Notes: generated from the letters alone by a model not told the origin. A DNA stretch of 64,000 bases from Anaerolineae bacterium (GCA_034411995.1 DAOUME010000022.1:3965-67964), one strand, 5' to 3'. Positions 3,071-40,590 are shown, counted from the first letter of the stretch. A program made the numbers and translations.

Positions 3071-3094
3071 CGACCAACTGATGGAGATGGCAAG

Positions 3095-3577
3095 ATGCAG
3101 CATCTGAATCCCCCAGACGAGCTTTTCGTCCGCATGGATGACTGCCTCGAGCGGCTCCTCGATCGGAGCCGGGCAGTCTGCGTACTACTGGCCGACATCA
3201 GCGGACAGTTGATCGTACAAAGAGGCAAGGACACCAGATTGGACACCTCGGCGCTGGCAGCCGTCACCGCCAGCAACATGGCAGCGACCGAGGAGATGGC
3301 CAGGCAGATAGGTGAGCCTGCACCTTTTTCCTACCTCTTCCACGAGGGGACCAGGCGGAGCATCTACGTCTCGGCCGTCGGCAAGACTTTTCTGCTGGTG
3401 ATCGTCTTTGACGAGATGTCACAAGTGGGGTTGGTGCGCATCTTCGCCAGGCTCGCGGTGAACGAACTGCTGGAGGTCACCACCGAGCTCGAGCCCTGGT
3501 TGGAGAAGGCAGGTTCGGTGGTGGATCGCGACTTCGGTGGGGCACTGGCCGACCAACTGGACAAAGCGTTCATCTGA
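3095..3577 (+). CDS. Roadblock/LC7 domain protein
   Basis: AVCVLLADISGQLIVQRGKD...SYLFHEGTRRSIYVSAVGKTFLLVIVFD fits the Roadblock/LC7 fold; GGAG RBS. Confidence 0.7.
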   Translation: MQHLNPPDELFVRMDDCLERLLDRSRAVCVLLADISGQLIVQRGKDTRLDTSALAAVTASNMAATEEMARQIGEPAPFSYLFHEGTRRSIYVSAVGKTFLLVIVFDEMSQVGLVRIFARLAVNELLEVTTELEPWLEKAGSVVDRDFGGALADQLDKAFI

Positions 3578-5187: not shown

Positions 5188-5856
5188 TCACTCCCCCACC
5201 GCCGTCTCCGTGGCTCTCGGCGTGGAGACAGCACCAGGGGTGGCGGGCTCTGCGCTCACCGTCGGTCCCGGTGTATCGGTGGGTGTGGGCGTGGGTTTCT
5301 CGGGCGGCTCGCTGATCAGCCGCTCCAGATCCCCGATGGCGGAGGAGGCCACCAGATAGACTTCGCTGCCCCCTTCTCTTTGTACGTAACTGGAGTAACC
5401 AGCGGGGTTCTTGTTCCCGACCAGGAGTACCTGGCTGCCACCGTCTGCCAGGCCAACCTCCACGCGCAGGGCCGGTTCGGCGAGACCGAAGGCCTCCAGA
5501 TCCACATCCTCCCCCTCCACGACTCTCGTGGACTGCATCTGCGACAGGCTCCCCAGGAGCCCCTCAATCCGCGTCGCATCCGCCTCGGCCTCGAGAGGCG
5601 CGGTCAAACGCCACATCCCCTCCGCAAGCCTCCGGACCATCACCGATTCGCTGCTCCTCTGATCGGTCACCTCCAGCGTTACGGCGTCTTCCACTTCGAA
5701 AGAAAACACGGGTACTCTACCCTCTTCCTCGGGCGCCGTCTCCTGGCCGCCCCTCATCTCCAGCACGAAGACCAGTGCCGCCAGGACCACGAAGACGGCC
5801 ACCACTATGATCGTAGTTCGCTGGTGTAATCTCATCGCTGTTACCTTCGCCTCCAC
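5188..5856 (-). CDS. DUF4340 domain protein (accessory component of GldG-type ABC systems)
   Basis: N-terminal TM helix, central DUF4340-like region and a Pro/Thr-rich C-terminal tail; co-oriented with and overlapping the GldG-like gene. The start could be the internal Met (MRLHQ...). Confidence 0.55.
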   Translation of the reverse strand: MEAKVTAMRLHQRTTIIVVAVFVVLAALVFVLEMRGGQETAPEEEGRVPVFSFEVEDAVTLEVTDQRSSESVMVRRLAEGMWRLTAPLEAEADATRIEGLLGSLSQMQSTRVVEGEDVDLEAFGLAEPALRVEVGLADGGSQVLLVGNKNPAGYSSYVQREGGSEVYLVASSAIGDLERLISEPPEKPTPTPTDTPGPTVSAEPATPGAVSTPRATETAVGE

Positions 5857-7373
5857 CAGACCACGGCGCCGACCAGCAGGATTGCCGCCGGCAAGAAGAT
5901 GACGCTGGAGTACTGCAAGAAACGAGCTTGCCCAGGGGACAGGACCAGGACGCGAGACACGGGCGGCTTCGGCCTTATGGAAATCAGCTCCTCTTCCTCA
6001 GCCAACCAGTTCACGCTATTGAGGAAGAGATCGCTGTTTCCTCCCAGCGTCAGGCTGGAGTTGCCGGCAAAATCCGAGTCTCCAAAGACCACCAGGCGCG
6101 TCCCCACGGTCGCCTCTCCTTCGCCCTGAGCCTCCACGCCCATGGCCATGGACAGCGGTCCCGCGGTGTCTGCGCCAACGTCGTACCGGGCTTCCTGCCG
6201 GCGCAGCGCCTCAAAGTCGGTTTCTCCCCAGCTCCCCTCACTGGATTCCACGAGGGCGAGCGCCGTCACCCCCTCCGGCTGCTCCACCGTGCGGGTAATC
6301 GACCTCGCCGTACTCAGCACCACGCCGGGCAAGTCCCGTGTGATTTCGCTGAACCGGAAGCTATCGACCACGGGCGACAGCGGATCGACGCCGAAAAGCC
6401 CTCGCTCAGGATCTATGACCACGTCATCCTCGTACTCCACACCCCACTCGCCCAGCACCTCGCTCAGGGCCGGTTCCTGCCCAGGTTCTTGCATGATCAG
6501 TGCCTTTCCCCCCTGCTGCAAGTAAGCGCTGATAGCCTCGCTCTCCTGCTCCAGCAAGGGAGTGCTGGGCGCCGCCACCACCAGGACAGATGCATCGACG
6601 GGAACGGTGCTGCTGATCGCCAGATTCAGCGTATTGACGACGTAGTTATCTCGCTCCAGGGCATCCCGGATCTCACTGTAGTCAGACTGATCGTACCCAC
6701 CCGGGTCGCGCTCACCGTGTCCGGTGAGGAAGTAGACGACCTTCTGCGAGTCTCGCGATACCTTCAGAAGGGCCCCGGTGATCTCCTGCTCGTCCACCGT
6801 CAAGCTGTCCTGTCTTCTCCCCGCGCACTCGAAGACGATCGTGCCGTATGACGTGATACCATACTGTTGAGCCACAAAGGGCTGCACGTCGGGATCCACG
6901 ACCTCATACGTGATCTTGTCCGTATGGTACACATACTCGGCCAGCAGGTCATCCAGTTCCTGCTGCGCGGGATCGCCCTGCACGAAGAAGGCCGTCACCT
7001 TCACAGGCTCAGTGAGATCAGACAAGATCTGCATCGTCTCAGGCGACAGCGTATAATCCTGAAACTCCGTCAGATCCAGACGTCGATGATGTCGATCCCC
7101 CAGGAAATTGAGGAGAACCAGTATGCCCAGGAAAGCTACGATGGCGATGCCAATGTTGGAGCCATACCTGGCCGCACGCCCAGTGATGGCAGACCTCAAG
7201 GCGTCCGGCCTGGCCGCCACGGACGCCACCAGCAGGATGGCACCCAGCCCCAACAACGCCTCCACGCGCAGGTCCAGCTCTTGGGTCAGTAGATACAGAA
7301 TCACCGCCAAGGTCAGAATAGCCAGCCCGGCGATGCCACCAGGAATAGCCAGGCGTTTCCACCAACCGCGCAT
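5841..7373 (-). CDS. GldG-like ABC transporter auxiliary/substrate-binding component
   Basis: 510 aa with N- and C-terminal TM segments and a large extracytoplasmic domain; lies in the conserved GldA-GldF-GldG order. Confidence 0.6.
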   Translation of the reverse strand: MRGWWKRLAIPGGIAGLAILTLAVILYLLTQELDLRVEALLGLGAILLVASVAARPDALRSAITGRAARYGSNIGIAIVAFLGILVLLNFLGDRHHRRLDLTEFQDYTLSPETMQILSDLTEPVKVTAFFVQGDPAQQELDDLLAEYVYHTDKITYEVVDPDVQPFVAQQYGITSYGTIVFECAGRRQDSLTVDEQEITGALLKVSRDSQKVVYFLTGHGERDPGGYDQSDYSEIRDALERDNYVVNTLNLAISSTVPVDASVLVVAAPSTPLLEQESEAISAYLQQGGKALIMQEPGQEPALSEVLGEWGVEYEDDVVIDPERGLFGVDPLSPVVDSFRFSEITRDLPGVVLSTARSITRTVEQPEGVTALALVESSEGSWGETDFEALRRQEARYDVGADTAGPLSMAMGVEAQGEGEATVGTRLVVFGDSDFAGNSSLTLGGNSDLFLNSVNWLAEEEELISIRPKPPVSRVLVLSPGQARFLQYSSVIFLPAAILLVGAVVWWRRR

Positions 7374-8084
7374 CTACCTCCACCTCCTCAACTGCAACAT
7401 CTGTACCGACAAGAAGAGAAACCCAGCGGTAGCGCTGAGGTAGAAGATGACGTCTTTGGTATCCACGATACCCCTGAGGAAATCGAAGTAGTGAGCGGAC
7501 ATCGAAAGGTAAGCCACGACATCACCCACAGGAGGGCCAAAGAGGCTTCCTGCGACGTCCACCAGCCAGAGGATGAGCATCGCTCCAAAGGCCAGCAAGG
7601 CTGCCACTACCTGATTTCGACTCAAGGAAGACGTAAACAGCCCAATAGACAAGAACGTCGCCCCCAGCAACGCCAGACCCACATATCCGCCGATGATGGC
7701 ACCTCGATCGGGATTACCGAGGCTGATCATGAGGAGCGGGTAGTATAGAGTCAGGGCCAGCATGACCCCGTAGACACCCAGACCGGCCAGGAACTTGCCC
7801 AGGACCACCTCCCAGTCCCTGACGGGCAGGGTGAGCAACAACTCGATGGTGCCTGACCTCTGTTCTTCGGCCAACAGTCGCATGGTCAGCGCGGGGGTCA
7901 CGAACAGCAAGGTGACCGCCATGTTGGCAAAGACTCCCCTCAGCGAGGCCTCTCGGGTATAGTAGACGATCAGCGAGAAGAAGAACCCCATGATCGCCAG
8001 AAAGGCAGCGATCACCACGTAGGCGATGGGGGATGCAAAATAGGCGTGCAGCTCTTTGCGGGCGATGACGACCATGTTCCTCAT
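7374..8084 (-). CDS. ABC-2 family permease (GldF-like)
   Basis: 236 aa, six predicted TM helices; stop/start abutting the upstream ATPase gene. Confidence 0.7.
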   Translation of the reverse strand: MRNMVVIARKELHAYFASPIAYVVIAAFLAIMGFFFSLIVYYTREASLRGVFANMAVTLLFVTPALTMRLLAEEQRSGTIELLLTLPVRDWEVVLGKFLAGLGVYGVMLALTLYYPLLMISLGNPDRGAIIGGYVGLALLGATFLSIGLFTSSLSRNQVVAALLAFGAMLILWLVDVAGSLFGPPVGDVVAYLSMSAHYFDFLRGIVDTKDVIFYLSATAGFLFLSVQMLQLRRWR

Positions 8085-9026
8085 TTAGGCAGCCTCCTCT
8101 CCCTTGTGCGCTTCCTCTTCCGTGGTCAACCTCAGGAAGATGTCTTCCAGCGTGAGCCCCAGCGGGCGCAGCTCCAGCAAGCCCCAACCCTGCTGAACCA
8201 CCAGAGAGGAGATCTCGGCACGGGGGTCCAGTCCGGCGCCGCACGCGACCACGTACTGGCCGTCTCCGCTGGTCTCCACGCCCGTCACACCCTCTATGGC
8301 GCCCACGAGTCTCACCACGTCTGGAGATGGATCCCGCACCTGAACCAGGACACGCCGAGCCTGCTCGAGCTTCGATCCCAACTCCTCGGGAGTGCCCTCA
8401 GCGGCTATCTCCCCCTCGTTGATGATCACCAACCGATTGCAGACCTCGCTGGCCTCGGGAAGGATGTGGGTACTGAGAATGACAGTGTGACTTCCTCCCA
8501 GACCCTTGATCAGTTGCCGCACCTCGCGGATCTGTCTGGGATCCAACCCGATGGTTGGCTCATCGAGGATGAGCACCTGGGGATCGTGGACCAGAGCCTG
8601 GGCCAACCCCACTCGCTGGCGATAGCCCTTGGAAAGTCTGCCGATCAAGGCGCCTGCGAAGTCGGTGAGATCGCACGTATCCATGATCTCCTCGATGCGC
8701 CGGCGACCATCGCTCACGTGGCGAATGCTGGCCACGAAGCTCAGGTACGAGGACACCGTCATCTCCGGGTAGAGAGGGACCATCTCGGGCATGTATCCGA
8801 TGCGCTTCCTCACCTCGAGAGAATCCTCCCAGACGTCGAACCCGGCGACGCGGGCCGTTCCAGCGCTGGGAGGCATGAAGGCAGTGAGAATGCGCATCGT
8901 GGTGGTCTTGCCCGCCGCGTTGGGACCCAGGAAAGCCAGGATCTCGCCGTCCTCGACTCGAAAACTCACGTCCTTGATCGCTGCGAAGCTCCCATAGTAC
9001 TTGGTGAGGCCCTCAACCTCTATCAT
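8085..9026 (-). CDS. ABC transporter ATP-binding protein (GldA-like)
   Basis: Walker A GPNAAGKTT, signature LSKGYRQRVGLAQAL, Walker B LILDEPT. The start was moved to the internal ATG (MIEVEGLTKYYG), which has a GGAGGA RBS. Confidence 0.8.
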   Translation of the reverse strand: MIEVEGLTKYYGSFAAIKDVSFRVEDGEILAFLGPNAAGKTTTMRILTAFMPPSAGTARVAGFDVWEDSLEVRKRIGYMPEMVPLYPEMTVSSYLSFVASIRHVSDGRRRIEEIMDTCDLTDFAGALIGRLSKGYRQRVGLAQALVHDPQVLILDEPTIGLDPRQIREVRQLIKGLGGSHTVILSTHILPEASEVCNRLVIINEGEIAAEGTPEELGSKLEQARRVLVQVRDPSPDVVRLVGAIEGVTGVETSGDGQYVVACGAGLDPRAEISSLVVQQGWGLLELRPLGLTLEDIFLRLTTEEEAHKGEEAA

Positions 9027-9262
9027 CTTTATCCTCCACTGGTGCTGGCCAGTCCTCAAATAGAGTGAAAGCACAAGGCTCGGCTCTCCGTCGCGTCACC
9101 ATGTGCTTCCCACCATGCGTTCTGTCAGCGCCGATATTACGGCACAAGCGGCACAGTGTCAAGTCACCAACAACTCAGGGTACCTCCGTCCTTCGGGGCG
9201 ATGGTCGAAATAGTATGCCCACCGCGGTGCGGGGCATCGGCCGCTCCGGGTCATCAGGGATC

Positions 9263-11625: not shown

Positions 11626-12294
11626 TCACTCGGGGGCCGTATCCTCCCCCCGTTCTCCCACCGCCGATAGCACCCTCTGGAGCATGAGTGGTTCAGGCAC
11701 CATCCCGTCCACGAAGGTGGTCTGGTTGATCACGGTACGCGGCACACCGCGGACTTGATAATTGATTGCCAACTGGGGAAACTCGGTGGCCTCCACCATG
11801 TCTGCGGTAACGTAATCACTCTCCACCGCCATCCTGTGCGTCAGCACGACCGCGCTGGGGCAGTATGGTCAAGTAGGAGTGACGAAAACCTGAAAGTGGA
11901 TCGCTTCATCTATCCCCGCCAGCGCCTTCCTCGTGGCCTCGCACAACCTGGACTGTCCGGAGGAGACCGCCTTGATGGCCTCGATCAAAGAGACGAACTC
12001 GTAACCTGAGGGTATGCCATAGAAACGTACCCCGTAATCCCTCTCACCCACGACGGCGATGGCCGGGATCTTGTCTATGCCATACTCATCGACCTCGTCC
12101 TTGTCCGTGGCGAAATCGTAGATCTCGGCCTCCACCTTGTCGGACAGAGAGGCCAGCTCCTCCACCAGCTCGTGCGTTTCGGCGCAGAAGTCGCATTCCA
12201 AGTTCTGCGTGAACATCAACAGCCGCACCGGGCTCACCAGCTCGGCCAGTTGCTTGCCGACCTCCTTCCTGTCCTCATCCCTCAGCATGGGCAT
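11626..12294 (-). CDS. Two-domain thioredoxin-fold protein (Pyrococcus PDO / glutaredoxin-like family), candidate selenoprotein with in-frame TGA (Sec) at 11869-11871
   Basis: ORF 11869..12294 ends ...HFQVFVTPT-TGA. Reading straight through in the same frame gives PYCPSAVV and then the 11626..11847 ORF (LTHRMAVESDY...). The first domain has a CDFC motif. The second site therefore reads TPT-U-PYC, i.e. the canonical CPYC with Sec replacing the first Cys. Confidence 0.6.
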
Positions 12295-12327
12295 GACTTT
12301 CCCTCCTCGTCCAAGGGGACACGGCCC

Positions 12328-13095
12328 TCACCGCCGACTCGCCGCTGGCTTCCTGCCCAGGGCCCAGAAATGGGGCATGAAGAACAGACGCGATCCGTCC
12401 TGGAGAGCCTTCCACGCCCGGTTCCGATACCCCCGCAGTAAGGCTCCGTCGGCGACGTTGTCCAGCGTCTCGAAGATGAAATCCCATTCTGCATCGAACT
12501 CCTCCGAGAGCTGCCGGTCGTCCCAAACAGAGCCGATAATCCCCGCTTGCGCCACCAGCCCGGCGCCCGAGAGAAGCGCCTTCAAGCGCCGGCCGAGGCG
12601 AGGATTCGCCCCCTCGCGGCGCAGCGACTCCTCCATCAGCGGGCCCAGCTCAATGTCTTCTGGATAGTCTATCCGTCCCCCGTAGTCAGGCTCCGTCGTG
12701 GCCAGGACCGCGCCACCCTCCTTGACCACGCGAGCCATCTCCTGCACTACCAACGCCGGGCTCTCCACCCACAACAACAGGTAGCTGCACACCACCAGGT
12801 CGAAGCTCCCGTCTCGGAACGGCAACTGCTGGGCATCTCCCACCAGCCAGTCCACATCCGAGATCCAGGCGGCCGCAAACCTGATCACGGACGGGTCCAG
12901 ATCGAGACCCGTCACCCTCCCTCGGGTTCGCTGCGCGATCTCTGCGGTCACGGCCCCGGTGCCGCAGCCGACGTCGAGCACCCTCTCCGCGCCCCACAGT
13001 CCCGCCTGGCGATAGAGATGAAAACGTGTTTCCTGGGTCCAGTGAGCCTGCCGCTGGAACTGCCGATGCCATTGCTCAACGGTGAGGCTCACCAA
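12328..13095 (-). CDS. Class I SAM-dependent methyltransferase
   Basis: VLDVGCGTGAVTAEIAQ motif I, DLVVCSYLLLWV motif; 255 aa. Confidence 0.75.
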   Translation of the reverse strand: MVSLTVEQWHRQFQRQAHWTQETRFHLYRQAGLWGAERVLDVGCGTGAVTAEIAQRTRGRVTGLDLDPSVIRFAAAWISDVDWLVGDAQQLPFRDGSFDLVVCSYLLLWVESPALVVQEMARVVKEGGAVLATTEPDYGGRIDYPEDIELGPLMEESLRREGANPRLGRRLKALLSGAGLVAQAGIIGSVWDDRQLSEEFDAEWDFIFETLDNVADGALLRGYRNRAWKALQDGSRLFFMPHFWALGRKPAASRR

Positions 13096-13158: not shown

Positions 13159-14532
13159 CTAGACCGCGGTTGACGTGCTCTCGACGCACAGGGCACCCTG
13201 GTTCTTCAGGTACAGGGGGCACCCACCACCACACAGCGGCAGCTCATCGCAGGAACGACATTTCTCCATCACCCAGTCCCTGTTCCTGAGACTCACCGCC
13301 TCCTCATGATTCCAGATGGAACCCCAGTCGTCTCGAAGTATGTTCCCCAGGCTCGAATAGTAGCTCTGGCAGGGAATGACGTCCCCGTTGGGCTCGACGC
13401 ACATGTTGTACCTGGCGGCCGTACAGAACTTGGCTCCCAACTCCAGATCCACCGGATGGAACTCACAATACTGCGTCGGCGTGTACCAGATGAGCCTCAT
13501 CCCCTCAGCGATCGCCTTGTCGCGCACCCTGACCATGAGACCTTCCAGCTCTGTTTCCAGGATGCCGATGCCGCTGGAGGGCCCCTTCCCAGAATAGATG
13601 AGACTGTTGCAGGCAAAGGTCTCGATCCCCAGCTCCTTCAGGAACTCTATGGTCCGCTCGAACTGCGGAGCGTTCAGAGTGGTCAGCGTGCTATTGGTGA
13701 TCGTATAGACGTCCGTGGCGACCGCGTTCTTGATGCCCTGCACCGTCTGCTTCCAGACCTCTGCCCCCACCATCCGGTTGTGGATCGCCTCGTCGTGAGA
13801 CTCCAGCGTGATCTGAATGTGGTCCAACCCCGCGTCCACCAGCTCTTCAAGGTACCCTTCGTCCGCCAGCTTGATGCCGTTGGTTAGCAGACCAGCGACC
13901 AGCCCCACGTCCTCGGCGTGCCGAACCAGCTCGACCAGGTCGGGGTACAGGGTCGCCTCTCCCCCGGTGAAGACCACGTGCGGTATGCCCAGGTCCCACA
14001 GCTTGTCGATAACCTGTTTCCACTCCGCCGTGGTCAGGCTCTCCATATCCCTGGGGCGGCCAACGTAGCAGTGCCCGCAGTCAGCGTTGCACCTGTAGGT
14101 GAGCGCCAGGTCCATACGGTAGGGCGCCGAGACAGGTGTGTTGAAGGGTTCGATCCTCTGTACGTCCAGATACGAGATGGGGCACACGTTGTCGGTGGTA
14201 GCCAGGGTGAAGATGGTGTCTTTCAGGTGCTCGTAATCCTCGCGCAGCCTGGCCGTCGACGCTTTGTAACGCCTCTTCAGCTCTCTGACCGCCTCATCTG
14301 TGTCTTTGCCCTCGACGAGCAGCTTGGCATGCTCGGTGGCCGTCTTGTTGAGGTGCAAGACCTTCGCGGCGTTGACCACCAGGATACCCTCGCCGTTATC
14401 CTCCACCCGCAAATGGATCCGGAATCGCTGGTCAGCACCATCCGGAGTCATGTAATGGAACATGCCCTTCTCCAAGGGTTCGGGTGCCGTAGGAAAGAAG
14501 GTGTCCTTCAAAGACCGCCAAACGCTCATCAC
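13159..14532 (-). CDS. Radical SAM / SPASM-domain enzyme with N-terminal PqqD-like RRE domain (putative peptide-modifying maturase)
   Basis: CNADCGHC (CxxxCxxC) after an about 115 aa N-terminal region resembling PqqD/RRE (VLHLNKTATEHAKLLVEGKDTDEAVRELKRRY). C-terminal Cys-rich SPASM region (CVEPNGDVIPCQ...CRSCDELPLCGGGCP). Confidence 0.7.
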   Translation of the reverse strand: MMSVWRSLKDTFFPTAPEPLEKGMFHYMTPDGADQRFRIHLRVEDNGEGILVVNAAKVLHLNKTATEHAKLLVEGKDTDEAVRELKRRYKASTARLREDYEHLKDTIFTLATTDNVCPISYLDVQRIEPFNTPVSAPYRMDLALTYRCNADCGHCYVGRPRDMESLTTAEWKQVIDKLWDLGIPHVVFTGGEATLYPDLVELVRHAEDVGLVAGLLTNGIKLADEGYLEELVDAGLDHIQITLESHDEAIHNRMVGAEVWKQTVQGIKNAVATDVYTITNSTLTTLNAPQFERTIEFLKELGIETFACNSLIYSGKGPSSGIGILETELEGLMVRVRDKAIAEGMRLIWYTPTQYCEFHPVDLELGAKFCTAARYNMCVEPNGDVIPCQSYYSSLGNILRDDWGSIWNHEEAVSLRNRDWVMEKCRSCDELPLCGGGCPLYLKNQGALCVESTSTAV

Positions 14533-14737: not shown

Positions 14738-15478
14738 TTAGCGAATGTCGAAGGTGACCTGGACCTGCACCGAGACCTCCAACTGGCCCGGCTGCACCGG
14801 CGCCGCACCTCCGCCTATCGCTCTCTCCGCGGTAGCGTAGATCGGCTCCAGATAGTACGGTGGCGACTCCGTGAAGGATTCGTTGATGTACCGGGGTCTC
14901 CCCAGCCCTACACCAGCCAACTGAGCCAGCGCCTCTGCCTTGTCTCGCGCCTGAGCCATCGCGTCGGCCCTGGCCTCTTCACGTAGCGCTGTGGGATCAT
15001 CGAACGTGAACCGGATGCCGTAGATGTTATTGGCTCCCGCCCCGGTCGCCGCATCCAGTACGTCTCCCGCCTTGTCTACCTCTCGCAGTTTCACCACCAC
15101 GGAGTTGTCGACCACGTAGCCGATGACCCGCTGCTCGTCGTCCTCCCAGTCGATCTCAGCCCGGACGCTGTAATCCACCGTCTGGACGTCCTCCTCAGCG
15201 ACTCCCAGCTCCAGGATCGCAGCCATCACGTCGGCCATCCGCTCGTCGTTCTCCGCGGCCGCCGCCCGGGCTTCTGCATTCCTCGTCTCCACCCCGATGG
15301 TGATCATGGCCAGATCTGGTTTCGCCGTCGCTTTTCCCTGGGCCATGACTGTGATGCCGGTCGGCTCTGTCACACCGCCCGACGGGCTAGGCACCGCCAC
15401 CACCATCAACTGAAGCACCAGCACGACAGCCACTAGGACCAGGCCCACTGCACCCACGACGATACCTGCTTTGGACAT
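14738..15478 (-). CDS. SIMPL-domain (DUF541) protein
   Basis: N-terminal TM/signal, then the SIMPL-like pattern (VETRNAEARAAAAENDERMADVMAAILELGV...DYSV...GYVVDNSVVVKL). Confidence 0.65.
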   Translation of the reverse strand: MSKAGIVVGAVGLVLVAVVLVLQLMVVAVPSPSGGVTEPTGITVMAQGKATAKPDLAMITIGVETRNAEARAAAAENDERMADVMAAILELGVAEEDVQTVDYSVRAEIDWEDDEQRVIGYVVDNSVVVKLREVDKAGDVLDAATGAGANNIYGIRFTFDDPTALREEARADAMAQARDKAEALAQLAGVGLGRPRYINESFTESPPYYLEPIYATAERAIGGGAAPVQPGQLEVSVQVQVTFDIR

Positions 15479-15621
15479 CTCGACTTGCCCTCCTTACAGA
15501 CTTGGTCTGATCGCGCCCCAAAAGCGCGTCTCTCTCAGCATGTAGACGACGCGGAGAGGAAGAAGGTTCCCCAGCCCCAGGGAGGAGCGAGAAACAAGAG
15601 CGGAGGCTAGCACCATACCAC

Positions 15622-17842: not shown

Positions 17843-17943
17843 CCCTCCAGCACCGTCTTTCAGTTTGGGGTCGATTCAAGTATAATGAATCGAAGCCAAC
17901 GTAAAGACACTACCAGTGCCCTGCGAGCACTCTCTCCCCGGCC

Positions 17944-19746
17944 ATGGACCAGGAAAGAATCAGGAACTTCTCCATCATCGCACACATCGATCACGGCAAG
18001 TCCACCCTGGCGGACCGCCTGCTGGAGTACACAGGCACTATCTCCCCCCGGGAGATGGCCGATCAGGTCCTGGACCAGATGGACCTGGAGCGCGAGAAGG
18101 GCGTGACCATCAAGTCCTCCGCCGTGCGCATGCGCTACCAGGCCGACGATGGCCAAGAGTACGAGCTCAACCTCATCGACACGCCGGGCCACGTGGACTT
18201 CACCTACGAGGTCTCCCGGGCCCTGGCGGCCTGCGAAGGCGCCGTCCTGGTGGTGGATGCCACCCAGGGGGTGGAAGCGCAGACTCTGGCCAACCTCTAC
18301 CTGGCCCTGGAGCACGATCTGGCCATCATCCCCGTGGCCAACAAGATCGACCTGGAAAGCGCCCGCCCGGAGGATGTGGCGCACGAGCTGGAAGAGCTGC
18401 TGGGCATCCCGGCGGAGCAGGTGCTGCGAACCTCGGCACGAGAAGGGATAGGGACCAAGGGTGTCCTGGAGGCCATCGTCAGGGCCGTCCCGCCGCCCCA
18501 GGGTCATTCTGAAGCCCCCCTGCGCGCTCTCATCTTCGACTCCCACTACGACCCGTACAAGGGCGTGGTGGCCTACGTGAGGATCGTGGACGGCCAGCTA
18601 AGGGGTCACCAGCGACTCGAGCTTATGTCAAACGAGCGGGCCTTCGAGCCTCTGGAGATCGGTGTCTTTACACCAGGAATGAGACCCACATCTGAGCTGG
18701 CCACCGCCGAAGTGGGATACATCGCCACCGGCCTCAAGAACGTCCGGGACTGCTCCGTGGGCGATACGATCACCACCGCCACAGACTCCGCCCAGGAGCC
18801 GCTCCCCGGATACCGGCCCATCAAGCCCATGGTCTTCGCCGGACTCTATCCCGCGGAAGCTGAAGACTATCACCTGTTGAGGGATGCCCTGGACAAGCTG
18901 CACCTCAACGATGCTTCGCTCTCCTACCAGCCAGAGGACTCCCAGGCTCTGGGCTTCGGCTTTCGCTGCGGGTTTCTGGGCCTCTTCCACATGGAGATCG
19001 TCCAGGAACGGTTGGAGAGGGAATACGGCCTCAGCCTCCTGGCCACGGCGCCCAGCGTGGAATACCACGTCCTGACCGGGGACGGCGAGCTGATCGAAGT
19101 CGACCGCCCCGCTGATCTGCCGGCACCGGTGGACATCGAGTCTATCGAGGAGCCGTGGGTCAAGATCAGCGTCTTCAGTCCCGAGGACTACATCGGCCCC
19201 ATCATGGAGCTGGTCACTTCCCGGCGCGGCGAGTACGAGTCCATGGAATACCTGGACCCTCAGCGGGTGCTGCTCACCTACCAGATGCCTTTGGGCGAGA
19301 TGATCGTGGAGTTCTACGACCAGCTCAAGTCTCGCACCAGGGGATACGCCTCTCTCGACTACGCCCTGTCTGGCTACCGGCCTGGGGACCTGGTCAGGCT
19401 CGACGTGCTGGTGAACAATCAGGCGGTGGATGCGTTGTCCCTGATCACCCACAGGGACCAGGCCTACGGCAAGGGCAGCTTGCTGGTCAAGAAGCTGAAG
19501 GAGGTGATCCCCCGGCAGTTGTTTCCCGTGCCGATTCAGGCCGCCGTGGGCAGCCACGTCATCGCTCGCGAGACGGTGAAGGCGCTGCGCAAGAACGTGC
19601 TGTCCAAGTGCTACGGCGGCGACGTGACCCGCAAACGGAAGCTGCTGGAGAAGCAGAAGGCCGGAAAGAAGAGAATGAAGAAGATCGGCCAGGTGAACAT
19701 CCCCCAGGAAGCGTTCATGGCCGTCTTGAACCTGTCGGAAGAGTAG
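17944..19746 (+). CDS. lepA: Elongation factor 4 (LepA)
   Basis: [35 protein letters not shown] GTPase motifs and the LepA C-terminal domain; 600 aa. Confidence 0.95.
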
Positions 19747-19764
19747 GAACAGCCAGAGCAGGCC

Positions 19765-21198
19765 ATGACCTCAGGCACCACCCGGCTGACCATCCTCCAT
19801 ACCAACGATCTGCACGGGCGCATCGAGCAACTGCCGTTCCTCAGCGCCATGGCCAGGGCCATCCGCAGGGAAGTGGCCAGCCAGGGGGGCCACGCGCTGC
19901 TCTGGGACGCGGGCGACGCAGAGGATCGTATCCTCCTGGAGAGCGACGTCACCAAGGGCGCGGCGATCGTGCCGCTGATGTCTGCCGTGGGCTACGACGC
20001 AGCGGCGGTCGGCAATTCCATCGGCGTCACCTACGGCCCCCAGAACCTGTCCCAGCTGGCGAAGATCGCCCCCTACCCGCTGATGGCCGCGAACCTGGCC
20101 TGGTCCGACACCGGCCAACTGGTAGAGGGGTTGGTGCCGTACAAGCTGTGGGACCTGGGCCCGGCCAGGCTGGGCGTGGTGGGGCTCACCGCTCCCTCCG
20201 TGGCCTACTCGTCGTTCGGCGCTCGCTGCTACGTCCCGGCGCCCCTGGTCACGGAGCTGACCCGTCACCTGCGGGAGCAGGGAGCCACCATCATCTCCAT
20301 CCTCTCGCACCTGGGGCTGGAGGATGACCGGGCGCTGGCCGAGTCAGTGGAAGGCATCGATCTCATCGTCGGTGGGCACTCGCACACCCTGCTAGAGGAG
20401 CCTCTGCTGGTCCAGGGGACGCTCATCACCCAGGCCGGCTCCTACGGACAGCACCTGGGTCAGATCGACCTGGAGGTAGACGACGCCTCTGGAAGGGTCT
20501 TGGAGCGACGGGCACAGGTGCTGCCGGTGGAGACGTCCCGAGCCGACGACGTGGTGGTGGAGGCCATCCAGGCGCAGGCGCAGGAGGTGCAGAAGCTGCT
20601 GGGTCGCGTCGTCGGTCAGACCGTGGCCTTCCTAGACGTGAACTACTTCCAGGAATGCGCCCTCGGCAACTTCCTGGCTGACGTATTACGAGCGCGCATG
20701 GGCACCGAACTGGCCTTCGTGGTCACCGGCATGCTGGACGAGGCCCTCAGGGAAGGCCCCATCACCTTCGGCGACCTGTGCAGAGCCACGTCCTCCACGG
20801 CCAACCCCGGCCGGGCTGAGCTGACCGGCGAGCAGATACTGGGCGCCCTGAACCACGGTCTCCGCCCTGAGGTGGCGCAGGACCGTCCATCTCCCATGCG
20901 CGGCAACCCCCAGGGGATCCTTCAGGTGTCGGGACTCACGGTCACCTACGACCCTTACGGCGACCCCCAGGAGCAGGTGGTGGCGGTTCTGGTAGGAAAG
21001 GAACCGCTGGACAGGAACCGTACCTACACTGTGGCCTCGACAGACTGGGAGCTGGGCCACCTCACCGCCTACGTCGACCTGGACCGGGACGACGTGAGAT
21101 ACGACGTACCGACGATTCTCCGCGAAGCGATGGAGGAGCATTTGCGTCAGCACTCTCCCATCTCCGTAGCAGTGGAGGGGAGAATGCAGCCCGTATGA
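19765..21198 (+). CDS. Bifunctional metallophosphatase / 5-prime-nucleotidase (UshA-like)
   Basis: LTILHTNDLHGR metallophosphoesterase motif, GNHE-like motif, C-terminal 5-nucleotidase domain. Confidence 0.8.
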   Translation: MTSGTTRLTILHTNDLHGRIEQLPFLSAMARAIRREVASQGGHALLWDAGDAEDRILLESDVTKGAAIVPLMSAVGYDAAAVGNSIGVTYGPQNLSQLAKIAPYPLMAANLAWSDTGQLVEGLVPYKLWDLGPARLGVVGLTAPSVAYSSFGARCYVPAPLVTELTRHLREQGATIISILSHLGLEDDRALAESVEGIDLIVGGHSHTLLEEPLLVQGTLITQAGSYGQHLGQIDLEVDDASGRVLERRAQVLPVETSRADDVVVEAIQAQAQEVQKLLGRVVGQTVAFLDVNYFQECALGNFLADVLRARMGTELAFVVTGMLDEALREGPITFGDLCRATSSTANPGRAELTGEQILGALNHGLRPEVAQDRPSPMRGNPQGILQVSGLTVTYDPYGDPQEQVVAVLVGKEPLDRNRTYTVASTDWELGHLTAYVDLDRDDVRYDVPTILREAMEEHLRQHSPISVAVEGRMQPV

Positions 21199-27532: not shown

Positions 27533-27646
27533 TCGCTGGCCAGTTGTGCTACTATTGATTGACTTCGCCCCTACTTCGAGAACCGCTCGACAGACGCCTC
27601 GCCCCGGCAATGACCCGGGTCTGCCCACGCGCCAGAGGAGGAAAGC

Positions 27647-30600
27647 TTGGTGGCTCAAGAGGATCGCCCACAGGCAACCGCCCCGCCGGAGAGCCGTCGG
27701 GAGATCGAGGGTCTCGTCCAGCGCTTCGCCCGCAACCGCGACGTGTACACCCGCCCCGACTACAAAGAGACCCAGGTCCGCGTGGAGTTCATCGACCCCT
27801 TCTTCGAGGCCCTGGGCTGGGACGTGCGCAACGTCAAAGGGTACGCGGAACAGTACAAGGACGTGGTCCACGAGGACGCCATCAAGATCAGCGGGGCCAC
27901 CAAGGCCCCCGACTACTGCTTCCGCGTGGGCGGGGTGAGGAGGTTCTTCCTGGAGGCCAAGAAGCCCTCCACCGCGGTCAAGGGTGAGGTAGGCCCGGCC
28001 TACCAACTGCGCCGCTACGCCTGGAGCGCCAGGCTGCCCCTCAGTCTGCTCACCGACTTCGAGGAGCTCGCCGTCTACGACTGCCGCCAGCGGCCCCGGC
28101 CCACCGACAAGGCTGGCGTGGGCCGGGTGATGTATTACACCTTCGACCAGTACCTGGAGCGCCTGGACGAGATCTACTCCATCTTCGCCCGGGAATCGGT
28201 CCTCAAAGGCTCCTTCGACCGGTACGTGGAGGACACCAAACGCCAGCGCGGCACCAGCGAGGTGGACGTGGAGTTCCTCAAGGAGATCGAGGGCTGGCGC
28301 GACGAGCTGGCCCGCAACCTGGCCCTGAGGAACCCCCAGCTCTCCGTCCACGAGCTGAACTTCGCCGTGCAGCGCACCATCGACCGCATCATCTTCCTGA
28401 GGATGTGCGAGGACCGGGGCATCGAGAGGTATGGCGGCCTGCTGGGCCTGACCGCCGGTCCCCACGTCTACGACCGTCTGGGGGAGCTGTACCGCGAGGC
28501 CGATCAGAAGTACGACTCCGACCTCTTCGACTTCCAGGCGGACAGACTGACCAGGTCCCTCTCCCTCGACGACAAGACCCTCAAGCCCATCCTCTCCGGC
28601 CTGTACTACCCCGACTGCCCCTACGAGTTCTCCGTGCTCCCCCCGGAGATCCTGGGCCAGGTGTACGAGCAGTTCCTGGGCAAGGTCATCCGCCTCACCG
28701 CGGGCCACCGGGCCAAGGTGGAGGAGAAGCCGGAGGTGAAGAAGGCGGGCGGCGTGTACTACACCCCCTCCTACATCGTGGAGTACATCGTCCAGCAAAC
28801 GGTGGGTCGCCTCATCGAAGGCAAGACGCCCCAGCAGATCTCCAAGCTGCACATCCTGGACCCCGCCTGCGGCTCCGGATCGTTCCTGCTGGGCGCTTAC
28901 CAGCACCTGCTGGACTACCACCGGCGCTGGTACGAAGAGCACGACCCGGAGAAGTACGCCACGGCCAAGCGCCCCGCCCTGTACCAGGGCCGCGGGGGCG
29001 AGTGGCGGCTGACCACGGGGGAGAAGAAGCGCATCCTGCTCAACAACATCTACGGCGTGGACATCGACCGCCAGGCGGTGGAGGTGACCAAGCTGAGCCT
29101 GCTGCTCCAGGTGCTGGAGGGAGAGAGCCAGGAGACGTTGGGCCAGCAGTTGAAGCTGTGGCGGGAGAGGGCCCTGCCCGACCTGGGGGAGAACATCAAG
29201 TGTGGCAACTCCTTGATCGGCCCGGACTACTTTGAGGGGCAGTTGCTGCCCGACGAGGAGGAGATGCGCCGGGTGAACCCCTTCGACTGGGAGAAGGAGT
29301 TCCTCCAGATTATGAAGGCGGGCGGCTTTGACGCGGTCATCGGGAACCCGCCCTACATCCGCATCCAGAGGATCGAGCATAGCGTGGCGGACTACCTCTT
29401 CCGCTCCTATCGGGCTCCGACAAGCAAGACCGACCTCTCTCTGGTGTTTCTTGAGCGCGCTCTGGCCCTAGCAACGGACAGCGGACTTGTCGGCTTCATA
29501 TGCACGTCTCAGTGGCTGTCGACAGACTACGGGCGGAACATGCGGGCCATGCTGTCCGATGGGCGACTTCACCAAGTGGTCGACTTCGGCTCCCTGCCAG
29601 TCTTCCAGAAAGCCAATACATACCCTGCGATCCTGATCCTGAGCCCGACCCGATGCGACGCCCTTGCGCTTAAGCGGATCCGGCGAGGTGAACAGCTGAA
29701 CCTGCCGGGCATCCAAGCTACCGATCCGGTCTTGATCGATCTGGATGGACTATCGGACGACCCATGGAACCTTGGGCGTTTGGATATACCAACGCTGCTC
29801 GGCGAGCGCGGGCTCGAATGGAGACCGCTCAGCGCGTACGCGAACGCGTACATCGGAGTCCTGACCGGCATGGACAGGGCCTTCGTCGTCGAGACGAGGG
29901 CTGCCAAGCAACTCCAGTTGGAGACGGACCTGCTCTTGCCGTACGCGTACCGAGGGGCCGAAGTCCAGCGATATGCTCAGGTGGAGCCTGGGGCCCTGGT
30001 GATTTACCCGTACCGTGAAGGGCCAGGGGGCGCGCCGAGGCTCATCCCCGAACCAGAACTGAGGCGGCACTACCCGAATATCCACCAGCATCTCGTGGCT
30101 CACAAGGATGCTCTGCGTGAGCGAAGAGATAGCCGGAGATTCTACGCGAAGGGGCCAGACTGGTATCGTCACCTGCGCGCGGGCTCCTTCGACTACATTC
30201 ATGCCCGCAAGCTCCTCGTCAAGGGTATTGAGACCCGTACGGTCGTAGGCCTGTTGGACGCGGGGACAGCATTCAATGGCGCGAACTGTCCGGGCGTAAT
30301 CGTCGAAGAGCCACAACAACTCTCGCCTCTCTACATCCTGGGGATCCTCAATTCCGGCGTCATGTCGTATCACCTTCGGATGATCTGCCCGGCGAAGCTA
30401 GGCGGCTACACTAGATTCAATGCTCGCGGCATCAACAGTGCACCCATCCGCACCCTCAGTCGCACAGACCGGGCCGAGGAAGCCCGACACGACAAGATGA
30501 TCGCGCTGGTGGAGCGGATGTTGGACCTGCATGAGAAGCTGGCCGCGGCCACCATCCCCGCCGACAAGAAACTCTACCAGCGTCAGATCGAGGCCACAGA

Positions 30601-30679
30601 TGAGGAGATAGACGCGCTGGTGTATGAGTTGTATGGGTTGACCGAGGAGGAGATCGCTATCGTGGAGGGTCGGGCGTGA
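27647..30679 (+). CDS. Type IIG restriction-modification enzyme (single-chain endonuclease + N6-adenine methyltransferase + TRD; MmeI/Eco57I-like)
   Basis: 1010 aa; N-terminal PD-(D/E)xK-like region (APDYCFRVGG...FFLEAKKP), FxGxG-like SAM motif (ILDPACGSGSFLLGAY), NPPY motif (VIGNPPYIRIQ), and C-terminal methyltransferase-type tail DALVYELYGLTEEEIAIVEGRA. GTG start 9 nt after GAGGAGG. Confidence 0.8.
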   Translation: MVAQEDRPQATAPPESRREIEGLVQRFARNRDVYTRPDYKETQVRVEFIDPFFEALGWDVRNVKGYAEQYKDVVHEDAIKISGATKAPDYCFRVGGVRRFFLEAKKPSTAVKGEVGPAYQLRRYAWSARLPLSLLTDFEELAVYDCRQRPRPTDKAGVGRVMYYTFDQYLERLDEIYSIFARESVLKGSFDRYVEDTKRQRGTSEVDVEFLKEIEGWRDELARNLALRNPQLSVHELNFAVQRTIDRIIFLRMCEDRGIERYGGLLGLTAGPHVYDRLGELYREADQKYDSDLFDFQADRLTRSLSLDDKTLKPILSGLYYPDCPYEFSVLPPEILGQVYEQFLGKVIRLTAGHRAKVEEKPEVKKAGGVYYTPSYIVEYIVQQTVGRLIEGKTPQQISKLHILDPACGSGSFLLGAYQHLLDYHRRWYEEHDPEKYATAKRPALYQGRGGEWRLTTGEKKRILLNNIYGVDIDRQAVEVTKLSLLLQVLEGESQETLGQQLKLWRERALPDLGENIKCGNSLIGPDYFEGQLLPDEEEMRRVNPFDWEKEFLQIMKAGGFDAVIGNPPYIRIQRIEHSVADYLFRSYRAPTSKTDLSLVFLERALALATDSGLVGFICTSQWLSTDYGRNMRAMLSDGRLHQVVDFGSLPVFQKANTYPAILILSPTRCDALALKRIRRGEQLNLPGIQATDPVLIDLDGLSDDPWNLGRLDIPTLLGERGLEWRPLSAYANAYIGVLTGMDRAFVVETRAAKQLQLETDLLLPYAYRGAEVQRYAQVEPGALVIYPYREGPGGAPRLIPEPELRRHYPNIHQHLVAHKDALRERRDSRRFYAKGPDWYRHLRAGSFDYIHARKLLVKGIETRTVVGLLDAGTAFNGANCPGVIVEEPQQLSPLYILGILNSGVMSYHLRMICPAKLGGYTRFNARGINSAPIRTLSRTDRAEEARHDKMIALVERMLDLHEKLAAATIPADKKLYQRQIEATDEEIDALVYELYGLTEEEIAIVEGRA
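30548..30679 (+). repeat. Master copy (3-prime end of the RM gene) of a 35-130 bp direct repeat found five more times downstream
   Basis: GCCACCATCCCCGCCGACAAG...GAGGAGATCGCTATCGTGGAGGGTCGGGCGTGA; see partial copies at 31680, 33545, 34771, 37506 and 43994. Confidence 0.85.
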
Positions 30680-30789
30680 GCGGACGGCGCAGCTGGTCGA
30701 GCCGCACATCCGCTGGTAGGCGCGATGGCCCCGAATCTCGCAATCAGGGCAACCCAATGGGCAGCTAGGTTCGACAGCCGGCCGCGGCC

Positions 30790-31656
30790 GTGCGGATATT
30801 GGCTGGGCCGGGAGCGCGGAGAGTTGGAGTGACCGCAGTTGTAGGCGTAAGTTTCCTCTCGGAAGTCATAATGATCGCAGATACTAGGGTGTCCTGGCCA
30901 GGCGCCCCACGGCCACCAGCAGATATGTTGCGGAAGCTGTACCCGGTCTTTTCGCCGCGAACTCCACAAAAGGCAGCTGTGCTGGGTTTCTCCGGCACAA
31001 TATCGGCGGCCAAAACAGTAATGATACACCTCGTGAAGGACAAGCTTCGCAACTACAATCGGCCCCTGATAATGGTCAATCTGAAAGACCATTTGAAGTG
31101 CTGGATAGAAGAAGTGACGGTGACCTGCCTGAGTCCGAGGAGCAGAACCGGCCTCACCTTCATGCTCTGCGGGCTTGAACCCTCCCGCACTGCTGCTGCA
31201 AGAAAGGGAAACGCGCTCGTGAGGTATAGACAGATCTTGGAAACCCACATATACGTCTTCAGTGTGAGCCAGAGCACCGGCAGAGTAGACGTGGTGAAGA
31301 AAGGCCTCTTCGCCGTCATTGGCTCGGGTGCAACACTCGAGCGAGAGCTGAAACGGAAGATTCCGCCAATGATCAGGTTCGGATTCAACCAGCCGAATCT
31401 GCATTGGGCACGAGCTCGCTTGGTGGGCGAAGTAGCGCGAGGAGTTTTTGACAGCGGCGGCGCAACCACAGTTGGCGGACCGTTTCAAGTGTTCCGCATC
31501 ACAGCAGAAGGCTTGGTCACCGAGTACATCTGGCCGGCAAGTATACAACCAAGAGACGTCAGCGTACGACAAGAAGGCCAAAAGACCATAATACAGAATC
31601 GAGACCTCAACCAGACTTACACGCTCCATCCCATATGGGACCTGCCATTGCAGTAG
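30790..31656 (+). CDS. Hypothetical protein, weak resemblance to Ntn-hydrolase / HslV-proteasome-like fold (cassette A)
   Basis: Segments AVLGFSGTISAAKTVMIHLVKDKL and LFAVIGSGATLERELKRK resemble HslV/proteasome-beta motifs (IAGFAGGTADAF.., AIGSGG..). The start is uncertain (GTG 30790 or ATG 30874). Lower GC than surrounding sequence. Confidence 0.4.
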   Translation: MRILAGPGARRVGVTAVVGVSFLSEVIMIADTRVSWPGAPRPPADMLRKLYPVFSPRTPQKAAVLGFSGTISAAKTVMIHLVKDKLRNYNRPLIMVNLKDHLKCWIEEVTVTCLSPRSRTGLTFMLCGLEPSRTAAARKGNALVRYRQILETHIYVFSVSQSTGRVDVVKKGLFAVIGSGATLERELKRKIPPMIRFGFNQPNLHWARARLVGEVARGVFDSGGATTVGGPFQVFRITAEGLVTEYIWPASIQPRDVSVRQEGQKTIIQNRDLNQTYTLHPIWDLPLQ

Positions 31657-31679
31657 TGGGCGAACCAGCAAGTGGCGCC

Positions 31680-31811
31680 GCCACCATCCCCGCTGACAAG
31701 AAGCTCTGCCAGCGCCAGATGGAGGCCACCGATGAGCAAATCGACGCGCTGGTGTACAAATTGTATGGGGTGACGGAGGAAGAGATCGCTATCGCGGAGG
31801 GCCGGGGTTGA
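31680..31811 (+). repeat. Direct repeat copy 2 of the RM-gene 3-prime end (about 130 bp, about 88% identical), ends in TGA
   Basis: GCCACCATCCCCGCTGACAAGAAGCTCTGCCAGCGCCAGATGGAGGCCACCGATGAGCAAATCGACGCGCTGGTGTACAAATTGTATGGGGTGACGGAGGAAGAGATCGCTATCGCGGAGGGCCGGGGTTGA. Translated in frame it reproduces ATIPADKK...ALVYKLYGVTEEEIAIAEGRG*. Confidence 0.85.
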
Positions 31812-31851
31812 CAGCCAGAAACCCGATGCGGTAGGGACCTAGACGGGCGGC

Positions 31852-33510: not shown

Positions 33511-33544
33511 TCCCCAGGTGCCGCGTGCAGAACTCTAGTTCGGG

Positions 33545-33598
33545 GTGCTAGTGTATGAGTTATATGGGTTGACCGAGGAGGAGATCGCGATTGTCTGA
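33545..33598 (+). repeat. Direct repeat copy 3 of the RM-gene 3-prime end (about 55 bp), ends in TGA
   Basis: GCTAGTGTATGAGTTATATGGGTTGACCGAGGAGGAGATCGCGATTGTCTGA. Confidence 0.8.
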
Positions 33599-33631
33599 AG
33601 GGCTTCCTCAGCGCAGAGAGTAGGCTGTAGC

Positions 33632-34135
33632 ATGATTCAGCCTTGGAGCGACCCCATACCGTACGACCTATCCCGCACGCTGCGTCGGGCAAGTGTCCCG
33701 CCGGGGTTCAGCAGTAGTGTGCCGCAGACTCCGGGTACGTACGTGATCTATTGCACCGCTCAACCAGACCTATGTGAAGCTATCATTGATATCGGAGAAG
33801 CTGGCCCGCGCGCCAAAGCGAGACCAAAGGGCCTCCGAGGGAGGCTGGCAACTACAGTTGCCCACACGGCCTCTGAAAGGATGGCCGCTGACGTACAGGC
33901 CGGCAAACTCCCGAACAGACTCCGTGTAGTTTGGATCGAGAGGCCGTCCAAAGAGGACGCCAAGGAGTTACAGGACGCACTTATCAGCCTCTTCCGAACG
34001 GATTGCGGACGCCAGCCGCGACACAACAAGAGACTGGAGCAGCACCCAAAGCCTGAGGCCTTCCTGGCGATTTGCGCCGCCCTGAAGAGGCACATTGGCG
34101 GCCTATTGCGCCACCCGACGGCCCGCTGCGGGTGA
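33632..34135 (+). CDS. Hypothetical protein with GIY-YIG-like nuclease motif (cassette C)
   Basis: PGTYVIYCTAQ...AIIDIGEAG...R..E spacing resembles GIY-(10-11)-YIG with downstream Arg/Glu; weak and unverified. Confidence 0.35.
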   Translation: MIQPWSDPIPYDLSRTLRRASVPPGFSSSVPQTPGTYVIYCTAQPDLCEAIIDIGEAGPRAKARPKGLRGRLATTVAHTASERMAADVQAGKLPNRLRVVWIERPSKEDAKELQDALISLFRTDCGRQPRHNKRLEQHPKPEAFLAICAALKRHIGGLLRHPTARCG

Positions 34136-34245
34136 CCAGACCGGCGTGCCCCAGGTTGGAGTGAGCGCTGCCCCCCGGCGGGCTCAGCCCGAGGGGGCCG
34201 GGGGCAAATCGTTCGGTGCAACAGCAGAATCAAAGGAGGAGGAGA

Positions 34246-34691: not shown

Positions 34692-34770
34692 TCGACCAAG
34701 TGTGTTTGGTTTTGGTGTACAGTGTGCACTGACGCACAGCTGCTTCGGCCCAACAATGGCTTGACCCCAT

Positions 34771-34848
34771 GGGGAGATCGACACGTTGGTGTATCACTTG
34801 TATGGGTTGACGGAGGGAGAGATCGCTATCGTGGAGGGGCGATCGCTG
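34771..34848 (+). repeat. Direct repeat copy 4 of the RM-gene 3-prime end (about 78 bp), ends in TGA
   Basis: GGGGAGATCGACACGTTGGTGTATCACTTGTATGGGTTGACGGAGGGAGAGATCGCTATCGTGGAGGGGCGATCGCTGA. Confidence 0.85.
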
Positions 34849-39436: not shown

Positions 39437-39483
39437 CCTTCGAGCAGTCGAACCGGCGCGGTTCGGAAAGGAGGGCTACACCA

Positions 39484-40512: not shown

Positions 40513-40590
40513 TCCCCCCTTCCCTCACGGGTGATCTGGTCCAGCCAGACTCGCACCATTACTGCTCAGACTACGGCACAGGAGGCCACC

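Follow-up and report, generated by a model that had tools for sequence, protein, structure and literature searches.

An In-Frame TGA Predicted To Encode Selenocysteine in a Two-Domain Protein Disulfide Oxidoreductase Gene from an Anaerolineae Bacterium

The DNA analyzed here is a 64,000-nucleotide stretch from an Anaerolineae bacterium, which we call the window, and it contains on its minus strand a gene for a thioredoxin-fold protein that is interrupted at codon 142 by an in-frame TGA. On the basis of comparative sequence analysis, we predict with high confidence that this UGA is decoded as selenocysteine (Sec), so that the gene would encode one protein disulfide oxidoreductase (PDO) with Sec at its C-terminal active site. 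The original prediction had preferred Sec insertion to a truncated gene followed by a second gene starting at a GTG, and that preference was borne out by conservation of the TGA in relatives, by purifying selection on the codons that follow it, and by a downstream hairpin specific to Sec forms. The gene belongs to a selenoprotein family that has been catalogued since 2006 and is not a new kind of system. What is known of selenoproteins is unchanged by it, and we regard it as a genuine but ordinary, under-annotated member of its family.

Gene structure and protein family

The sequence reads as had been claimed. The minus-strand open reading frame (ORF) 12294..11869, of 141 amino acids, ends in HFQVFVTPT and is closed by the TGA at 11871..11869. 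Past the TGA, the same frame continues with CCA TAC TGC (P-Y-C) and is open to the TGA at 11628..11626, covering the ORF 11847..11626, which starts at an in-frame GTG. Both of the motifs named in the original prediction are present, CDFC in the N-terminal half and TPT-[TGA]-PYC in the C-terminal half (Table 1). Read through with Cys or Sec at codon 142, the gene gives a product of 222 residues. The GC fractions at codon positions 1, 2, and 3 are 0.60, 0.39, and 0.78 in one half of the gene and 0.65, 0.43, and 0.75 in the other, which is the coding signature of the genome. The database copy of the gene is the exact 141-residue fragment, P0035, which comes from a 328-kb contig.

Table 1. Coordinates of the PDO gene, its upstream neighbors, and the predicted RNA structures in the window
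Feature	Position	Strand	Remarks
Complete PDO-type gene, predicted selenoprotein	11626..12294	minus	ATG 12294..12292; true stop TGA 11628..11626; one internal UGA
Shine-Dalgarno GGAGG	12302..12306	minus	7 nt before the ATG; read from sequence
N-terminal redox motif CDFC (Cys34-Cys37)	12184..12195	minus	Both Cys invariant in the homolog alignment
C-terminal active site U-P-Y-C (U predicted)	11860..11871	minus	UGA (residue 142) 11871..11869, at the attacking Cys position
Radical SAM/SPASM enzyme	14532..13159	minus	PqqE-like; under every NCBIfam cutoff
Class I SAM methyltransferase	13095..12328	minus	Directly upstream of the PDO gene
Hairpin A, preferred SECIS candidate	11842..11857	minus	Stem CAGCGC/GUGCUG, 6 bp, -8.9 kcal/mol
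Helix B, mutually exclusive alternative	11823..11858	minus	nt 14-49; apical loop UGAC at nt 29-32

When the window was screened for in-frame stops with flanking coding signal, codon 142 was the sole junction that was spanned by homologs and had no start following it. Other places where an in-frame TGA is flanked by coding signal were rejected, being either ordinary gene boundaries, with an ATG directly after the stop, or antisense frames. At 5841-9095, 17905-21198, and 39427-41823, neighboring genes abut in the same frame and mimic read-through in a naive stop screen; at the first of these, the ATG of the next gene comes directly after the stop codon. TGA is the terminator of 19 of the 45 ORFs in the window, including the PDO gene at its own end and the methyltransferase gene upstream, which indicates that the codon has not been reassigned.

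The read-through protein scored 275.5 bits against TIGR02187 of NCBIfam ("PDO_seleno_TRX, protein disulfide oxidoreductase"), for which the cutoff is 185, with residues 6 to 210 lying on profile positions 2 to 208 of 209; the NCBI name of the model itself contains "seleno." Pfam Thioredoxin_3 matched two stretches of the protein and, as judged from the sequence, there are two tandem thioredoxin-fold units with a redox CxxC in the second and also in the first. The closest solved structure was the PDO of Pyrococcus furiosus (1A8L; E value, 2e-46), both thioredoxin folds of which aligned. Homologs of about 220 amino acids numbered in the thousands in a database search and were up to 74% identical; the read-through protein aligned with such homologs from end to end, far beyond what chance would give. 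Alignment with Cys-containing homologs had been expected to run across the U position, and it does so, with Cys in the TGA column in 19 of 19 aligned homologs (alignment A1); conservation after that column equals conservation before it. With the CPYC of 1A8L also aligned there, the TGA falls at the attacking Cys of a CPYC site, and the proposed two-domain PDO-type identity agrees with both the structural alignment and the score above the TIGR02187 cutoff. By these matches, the gene is a single protein disulfide oxidoreductase of TIGR02187 and is homologous to AhpF's N-terminal domain. The protein is not AhpF itself, since a flavoprotein module is absent and its scores fall well short of the AhpF cutoffs, with 78 bits against a cutoff of 503 for TIGR03140 and 110 against 688 for TIGR03143.

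Conservation of the TGA in relatives and across bacteria

The 90% cluster of P0035 holds a second 141-residue protein, from JGI metagenomes, that differs at 7 residues and has the same TPT end. Five further loci (L001 to L005) were found via the contigs of C-terminal fragments, 68 to 70 residues long, in another cluster and derive from independent JGI (L001, L002, and L004), NCBI (L003), and Logan (L005) assemblies. At the DNA level, codon 142 is TGA in all five, and the frame is intact to the end. They fall into three lineages, the first made up of L001 and L002, with 95% nucleotide identity to the window, and the others of L003 and of L004 with L005, both of which show about 70 to 73% nucleotide identity to the window. 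A sequencing or assembly error, with TGC as the true codon, would require a difference of a single base in a source that is probably a metagenome-assembled genome. However, the same TGA occurs in the independent assemblies L001 to L005, whose sequences depart from that of the window at many further sites, and across the family it is accompanied by a Sec-specific constraint on synonymous sites, described below. We consider such an error extremely improbable.

The frame downstream of the TGA evolves as coding sequence. Between TGA lineages, the post-TGA dN/dS was 0.19 to 0.20 with a dS of about 1. In two comparisons within TGA clades, where all of the divergence arose with the TGA already in place, it was 0.12 and 0.16. 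Within these clades, 7 of 20 post-TGA substitutions were nonsynonymous, versus the 77% expected under neutrality (P = 7e-5). Purifying selection thus acts past the TGA, and it follows that the downstream domain is maintained as protein.

The form with TGA is not confined to the close relatives of the window. One genome per GTDB species was scanned for TTYGTNACNCCNACNTGACCNTAYTGY (F-V-T-P-T-TGA-P-Y-C), which recovered at least 120 loci. FVTPT-TGA-PYC is thus present in at least 120 genomes, each representing a species, and every match listed lies in a PDO-type gene. The matches listed have about 141 or more residues upstream where the locus allows and usually an N-terminal CxxC, and the frame after the TGA is open for 69 to 109 codons, typically 71 to 82. 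The exception among the matches listed is L113, in which the frame runs 396 codons past the TGA. The hosts among the matches listed include many Chloroflexota (Anaerolineae, Chloroflexia, Ktedonobacteria, Thermomicrobia, Sphaerobacter, and Dehalococcoidia), Bacillota (among them the cultured Alicyclobacillus tolerans, A. mengziensis, Sulfobacillus harzensis, and Tepidibacillus), and also Acidobacteriota, Ignavibacteria, Actinomycetota, Zixibacteria, and Dormiibacterota. The genome from which the window comes is absent from the listed species representatives; the closest among the matches listed are L018 and L019, which are about 75% identical. The TGA form is a widespread and stable state of the PDO gene.

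The exceptional locus, L113, is from a Proteobacteria bacterium metagenome-assembled genome (MAG) (DSAQ01000199.1), with the TGA at locus position 6525 on the plus strand. Its product would total about 550 residues, a size like that of AhpF or an AhpF homolog, and it may be a Sec-containing AhpF-type fusion.

These observations bear on a different reading of the locus, that of a nonsense-mutated or split gene. There, TGC would have become TGA, only the 141-residue N-terminal domain would be made, and the downstream ORF would be either dead or separately translated from the GTG at 11847. The change from TGC to TGA takes one base, gene callers do divide the gene into parts of 141 and 68 to 73 residues (141 and 68 to 70 in L001 to L005), and no selA, selB, selD, or tRNA-Sec lies within the 64-kb window. 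A further locus, L006, is 99% identical to L004 and L005 in nucleotides and has TGC, so that the TGA could be read as a segregating nonsense allele. Against this, three diverged lineages and at least 120 species have the TGA at this very codon, in genes without any other stop or frameshift, and selection on the post-TGA codons is purifying even within the TGA clades. The downstream starts are likewise not those of a second gene: they are unconserved (the GTG in the window and different ATGs in L003 and L004), a protein begun at them would lack the PYC active site together with the fold's first strand, and no Shine-Dalgarno sequence precedes the GTG in the window. The differing starts, the loss of PYC, and the absence of a Shine-Dalgarno sequence at the GTG make a separately initiated downstream gene implausible, and the codons from the TGA to the GTG are themselves conserved as coding sequence. 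We consider a split or nonsense-mutated gene very unlikely and Sec insertion the best explanation of the conserved frame.

The comparison with L006 is informative in another respect. The PDO gene of L006 (2646-3320) carries TGC, those of L004 (212-886) and L005 (166-840) carry TGA, and the downstream hairpin is unchanged between them. The difference has the look of a Sec/Cys switch that took place very recently, or of a within-species polymorphism. In a neighbor-joining tree, Sec and Cys forms are interleaved, with the Sec forms in no fewer than two sub-clades. Repeated exchange of Sec and Cys, with remnant SECIS-like structures in the Cys forms, has been documented for thiol-oxidoreductase selenoprotein families (PMC1794560). 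The presence of TGA and TGC among near-identical genomes, with the hairpin intact, raises the idea that UGA is not a fixed Sec codon in this Anaerolineae lineage, which we think very unlikely. The variation could reflect ongoing turnover of Sec and Cys alleles within a population or, more exotically, a SelB-dependent tRNA-Cys(UCA) that decodes UGA as Cys. We know of no description of such a tRNA-Cys(UCA) system in Chloroflexota.

The surroundings of the gene are also partly shared. The order radical SAM/SPASM enzyme, methyltransferase, PDO seen in the window (Table 1) recurs in L001, L003, and L006 to L010 and apparently in L018 and L019, with Sec and Cys forms alike. In L001 to L005, the syntenic genes are those for a radical SAM/SPASM enzyme, a methyltransferase, the PDO, a GT2 glycosyltransferase, and a polyprenyl glycosylphosphotransferase. 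Orthologues of the radical SAM/SPASM enzyme show a faint PqqD-like Pfam match, and neither a precursor peptide nor a functional link was found for this pair of genes. Two genes upstream of the PDO gene, at 14738-15493 on the minus strand, is a homolog of the SIMPL/YggE-type "oxidative stress defense protein" that scores below the cutoff; such a homolog is near the PDO gene in L003 and L007, too.

Several other features were observed farther from the gene. Two genes for MglB/Roadblock-like GTPase-activating proteins are located at 586-1203 and 3071-3577 on the plus strand, and L004 has Arf/Ras-like GTPase, PatA_N, PilZ, and Robl_LC7 genes at 5976-8566, which suggests small-GTPase polarity or motility modules near the PDO locus in this lineage. 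The region 27614-36085 (plus strand) contains a gene for a 1,021-residue protein with partial similarity, below the cutoff, to BREX PglX adenine methyltransferases, followed by three ORFs that have no NCBIfam match and a clearly lower third-position GC, of 0.58 to 0.66, versus about 0.8 elsewhere; the region may be a horizontally acquired defense or restriction island. At 37795-39436 (plus strand), a D-Ala-D-Ala-ligase-like gene, below family cutoffs, precedes a 205-residue ORF whose match to the 351-position ornithine racemase model is confined to positions 1 to 150 and that could be a truncated racemase gene or the result of a frameshift.

The downstream hairpin and the Sec machinery

Published criteria for a bacterial SECIS (bSECIS) element call for a loop of 3 to 9 nt, an upper stem of 4 to 16 bp, and a free energy no higher than -7.5 kcal/mol, with G, mostly as G[G|U], within the first two positions of the loop and a spacing between the UGA and the loop of 16 to 37 nt (PMC13188914). 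The original prediction anticipated a SECIS-like structure downstream of the TGA, and one was found: hairpin A lies within the bSECIS criteria, and it is the Sec forms to which a hairpin at its position is specific. With nucleotides numbered from the U of the UGA, the stem of hairpin A pairs nt 15 to 20 with nt 25 to 30 around the loop GGUC at nt 21 to 24 (11851..11848), and its loop, its 6-bp stem, its 17-nt spacing, and its free energy agree with all of the published values. Helix B, too, agrees with these loose criteria. The short GUGC-UGAC-GCAC hairpin that had been picked out by eye does exist, at nt 25 to 36 (11847..11836), where it forms the tip of helix B, but it is probably not the family-conserved SECIS, for which hairpin A (nt 15 to 30) is the better candidate.

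The two structures differ in their conservation. All six pairs of hairpin A are present in the window, L001, L018, L019, and L004, among which the changes are one-sided and conservative, from A-U to G.U or from G.U to A-U. Four of the six are present in L003. In the Cys relatives L007 and L010, G30 is replaced by U, and the outer pair of hairpin A is lost. The lower stem of helix B is unconserved in L003, L004, L018, and L019, where there is an A19.C44 mismatch. The core of helix B is retained by the Cys form L007, and in the Cys form L010 it is present but weakened by a C28.A33 mismatch. The isolated RNA reaches its minimum free energy, -20 kcal/mol, when folded as helix B, and because this overlapping helix is more stable, RNAfold gives hairpin A a probability of about zero in the isolated RNA. 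Hairpin A has the position of a family-wide hairpin in which the GU of a Val codon (nt 22 and 23) lies in the loop. It is this homology with the hairpin of the rest of the family that leads us to favor hairpin A over helix B as the putative functional SECIS.

Folding of the RNA from the window alone was unremarkable, with no significant signal by synonymous resampling (z = -0.84, p = 0.21) or against dinucleotide shuffles (z of about -1.1). The case for a SECIS accordingly rests on the comparison of Sec and Cys forms, for which 122 FVTPT-C-PYC forms from a metagenome scan served as Cys controls. Over nt 10 to 48, and relative to synonymous-codon nulls, the mean z was -0.76 for Sec forms (p = 2e-22) versus -0.12 for the Cys controls (p = 0.2), and the two sets differed by a Mann-Whitney test (p = 2e-9); the sequences are phylogenetically non-independent, so these p-values and the one that follows are inflated, yet the contrast between Sec and Cys is still large. 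A hairpin with GU (nt 22 and 23) in the loop and a stem of at least 5 bp was found in 89% of the Sec forms versus 22% of the Cys forms, with a median free energy of -10.2 kcal/mol for Sec versus -2.15 kcal/mol for Cys (p = 8e-22). In the context PYCP[RQ]AV[VLTI]LA, Sec forms are almost invariant at the third codon positions nt 15, 18, 21, 24, and 27, with G, A, C, G, and G, whereas the same positions are free in Cys forms. The pair between nt 17 and nt 30 is A-U in 12 Sec forms and G-C in 30, with 1 mismatch, and the Cys forms show no such pattern. This comparative set, with at least 120 species, a Sec-specific GU hairpin, and covariation, may help selenoprotein predictors for the PDO family. 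No Rfam SECIS model matched in the window, and a permissive scan of 11760-11900 gave a chance Prion_pknot hit only (E value, 8.7).

Sec-decoding genes were sought in the window and in related loci. ARAGORN and Rfam found no tRNA-Sec in the 64-kb window, where the only hit was tRNA-Leu, and none was found in 48 related loci. The selA, selB, and selD genes were not found among the 40 window ORFs scanned with NCBIfam; the window ORFs outside that scan are too short for sel genes or, by synteny with L007, are ABC-transporter genes. The phylum does show the Sec trait. Members of the Chloroflexi have an 8/4-type tRNA-Sec (PMC5389517), and selenoproteins of Chloroflexi had already been counted in 2006 (PMC1794560). 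Two Dehalococcoidia MAGs with 46 to 49 selenoproteins are present in BSepDB. The PDO selenoprotein predicted here implies a Sec-decoding trait in an uncultured Anaerolineae-type organism. A second selenoprotein candidate in the window, a methyltransferase at 43055-43882 with weak likeness to NCBIfam "methyltransferase ... selenoprotein" models, was rejected because its frame ends in TAG; more stops follow.

A different question is whether UGA might be recoded to a residue other than Sec, through a selC*-like tRNA-Cys(UCA) acting with a SelB-type factor or through near-cognate read-through with Trp or Cys. In some anaerobes, a selC* tRNA-Cys(UCA) can translate Sec-UGA as Cys (PMC5389517), and a UGA read as Cys would make the TGA/TGC difference between L004/L005 and L006 neutral. 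Yet selC* has been reported from Firmicutes, Thermodesulfobacteria, Nitrospirae, and Proteobacteria, not from Chloroflexi, and always in company with complete Sec machinery (PMC5389517). Moreover, catalogues list the family among those with Sec, and the SECIS-type hairpin agrees with Sec insertion of the canonical, SelB-dependent kind. Decoding as another amino acid thus appears to us about as improbable as a split gene, and Sec is the residue that we predict at codon 142.

Proposed function and relation to known systems

The way in which the protein would be made and would act can be outlined from these data. When a ribosome reaches the UGA, SelB carrying Sec-tRNA(Sec) would bind the mRNA hairpin just downstream, and Sec would be delivered at the UGA in place of termination. 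The hairpin bound by SelB would most likely be that of nt 15 to 30, with its loop GGUC presenting G22 and U23, and selA, selB, selC, and selD would be encoded in the host genome. In the finished protein, the selenolate of residue 142 would make the nucleophilic attack in thiol-disulfide exchange, with Cys145 resolving the intermediate. Recycling would be carried out by a thioredoxin-reductase-type flavoprotein, by analogy with the archaeal and Thermotoga PDO/glutaredoxin-like proteins. For annotation, the value of the result is that the locus would be entered as one 222-residue selenoprotein, where the database now has a 141-residue fragment and the sister loci are split in two.

Among proteins of known structure, the P. 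furiosus PDO (1A8L) and the related PDOs (1J08, 2AYT, 2YWM, and 2HLS) align at both CxxC sites. The CQYC of the P. furiosus protein falls on the CDFC of the window protein, and its FVTPTCPYCP falls on FVTPT-TGA-PYCP, to which it is nearly identical. The archaeal and Aquifex PDOs differ in having Cys and not Sec at the attacking position, and their hosts are hyperthermophilic archaea and Aquifex. The N-terminal domain of AhpF (1HYU, 1ZYN, and 4O5Q) and the AhpF homolog TIGR03143 share this double thioredoxin fold, and in them the redox-active CxxC belongs to the second of the two folds. However, AhpF carries a fused thioredoxin-reductase-like FAD/NADH module and has AhpC as the protein it serves, whereas the window protein stands alone, with no AhpC neighbor beside its gene. 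The SECIS of the Escherichia coli fdhF paradigm is, like hairpin A, a coding-region hairpin immediately 3' of the UGA; hairpin A has no sequence similarity to the fdhF element and differs from it in the presence of a more stable overlapping helix.

The closest known system is the TIGR02187 selenoprotein family itself. The original prediction had described UxxC thioredoxin-fold selenoproteins as an established class, in agreement with the literature, in which this family has been listed as a UxxC selenoprotein family since 2006 (Zhang et al. 2006, PMC1794560; reviews of 2022 and 2026, PMC9312934 and PMC13188914). The reference member is ABB15282.1 from Carboxydothermus hydrogenoformans, and the family has been reported too from Symbiobacterium thermophilum and Asgard archaea (PMC1794560, PMC9312934, PMC13188914). 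Its members share with the window gene, as predicted here, the two thioredoxin folds, a single Sec in the UxxC of the C-terminal domain, a SECIS-type hairpin directly downstream, and many homologs of Cys form. The window gene differs from them in its host, an uncultured Anaerolineae-type member of the Chloroflexota, and in the hairpin of its sub-lineage, which has a 4-nt GGUC loop with the 3' strand at nt 25 to 30, whereas the commoner hairpin of the family has a 6-nt CGUGNU loop with the 3' strand at nt 27 to 32.
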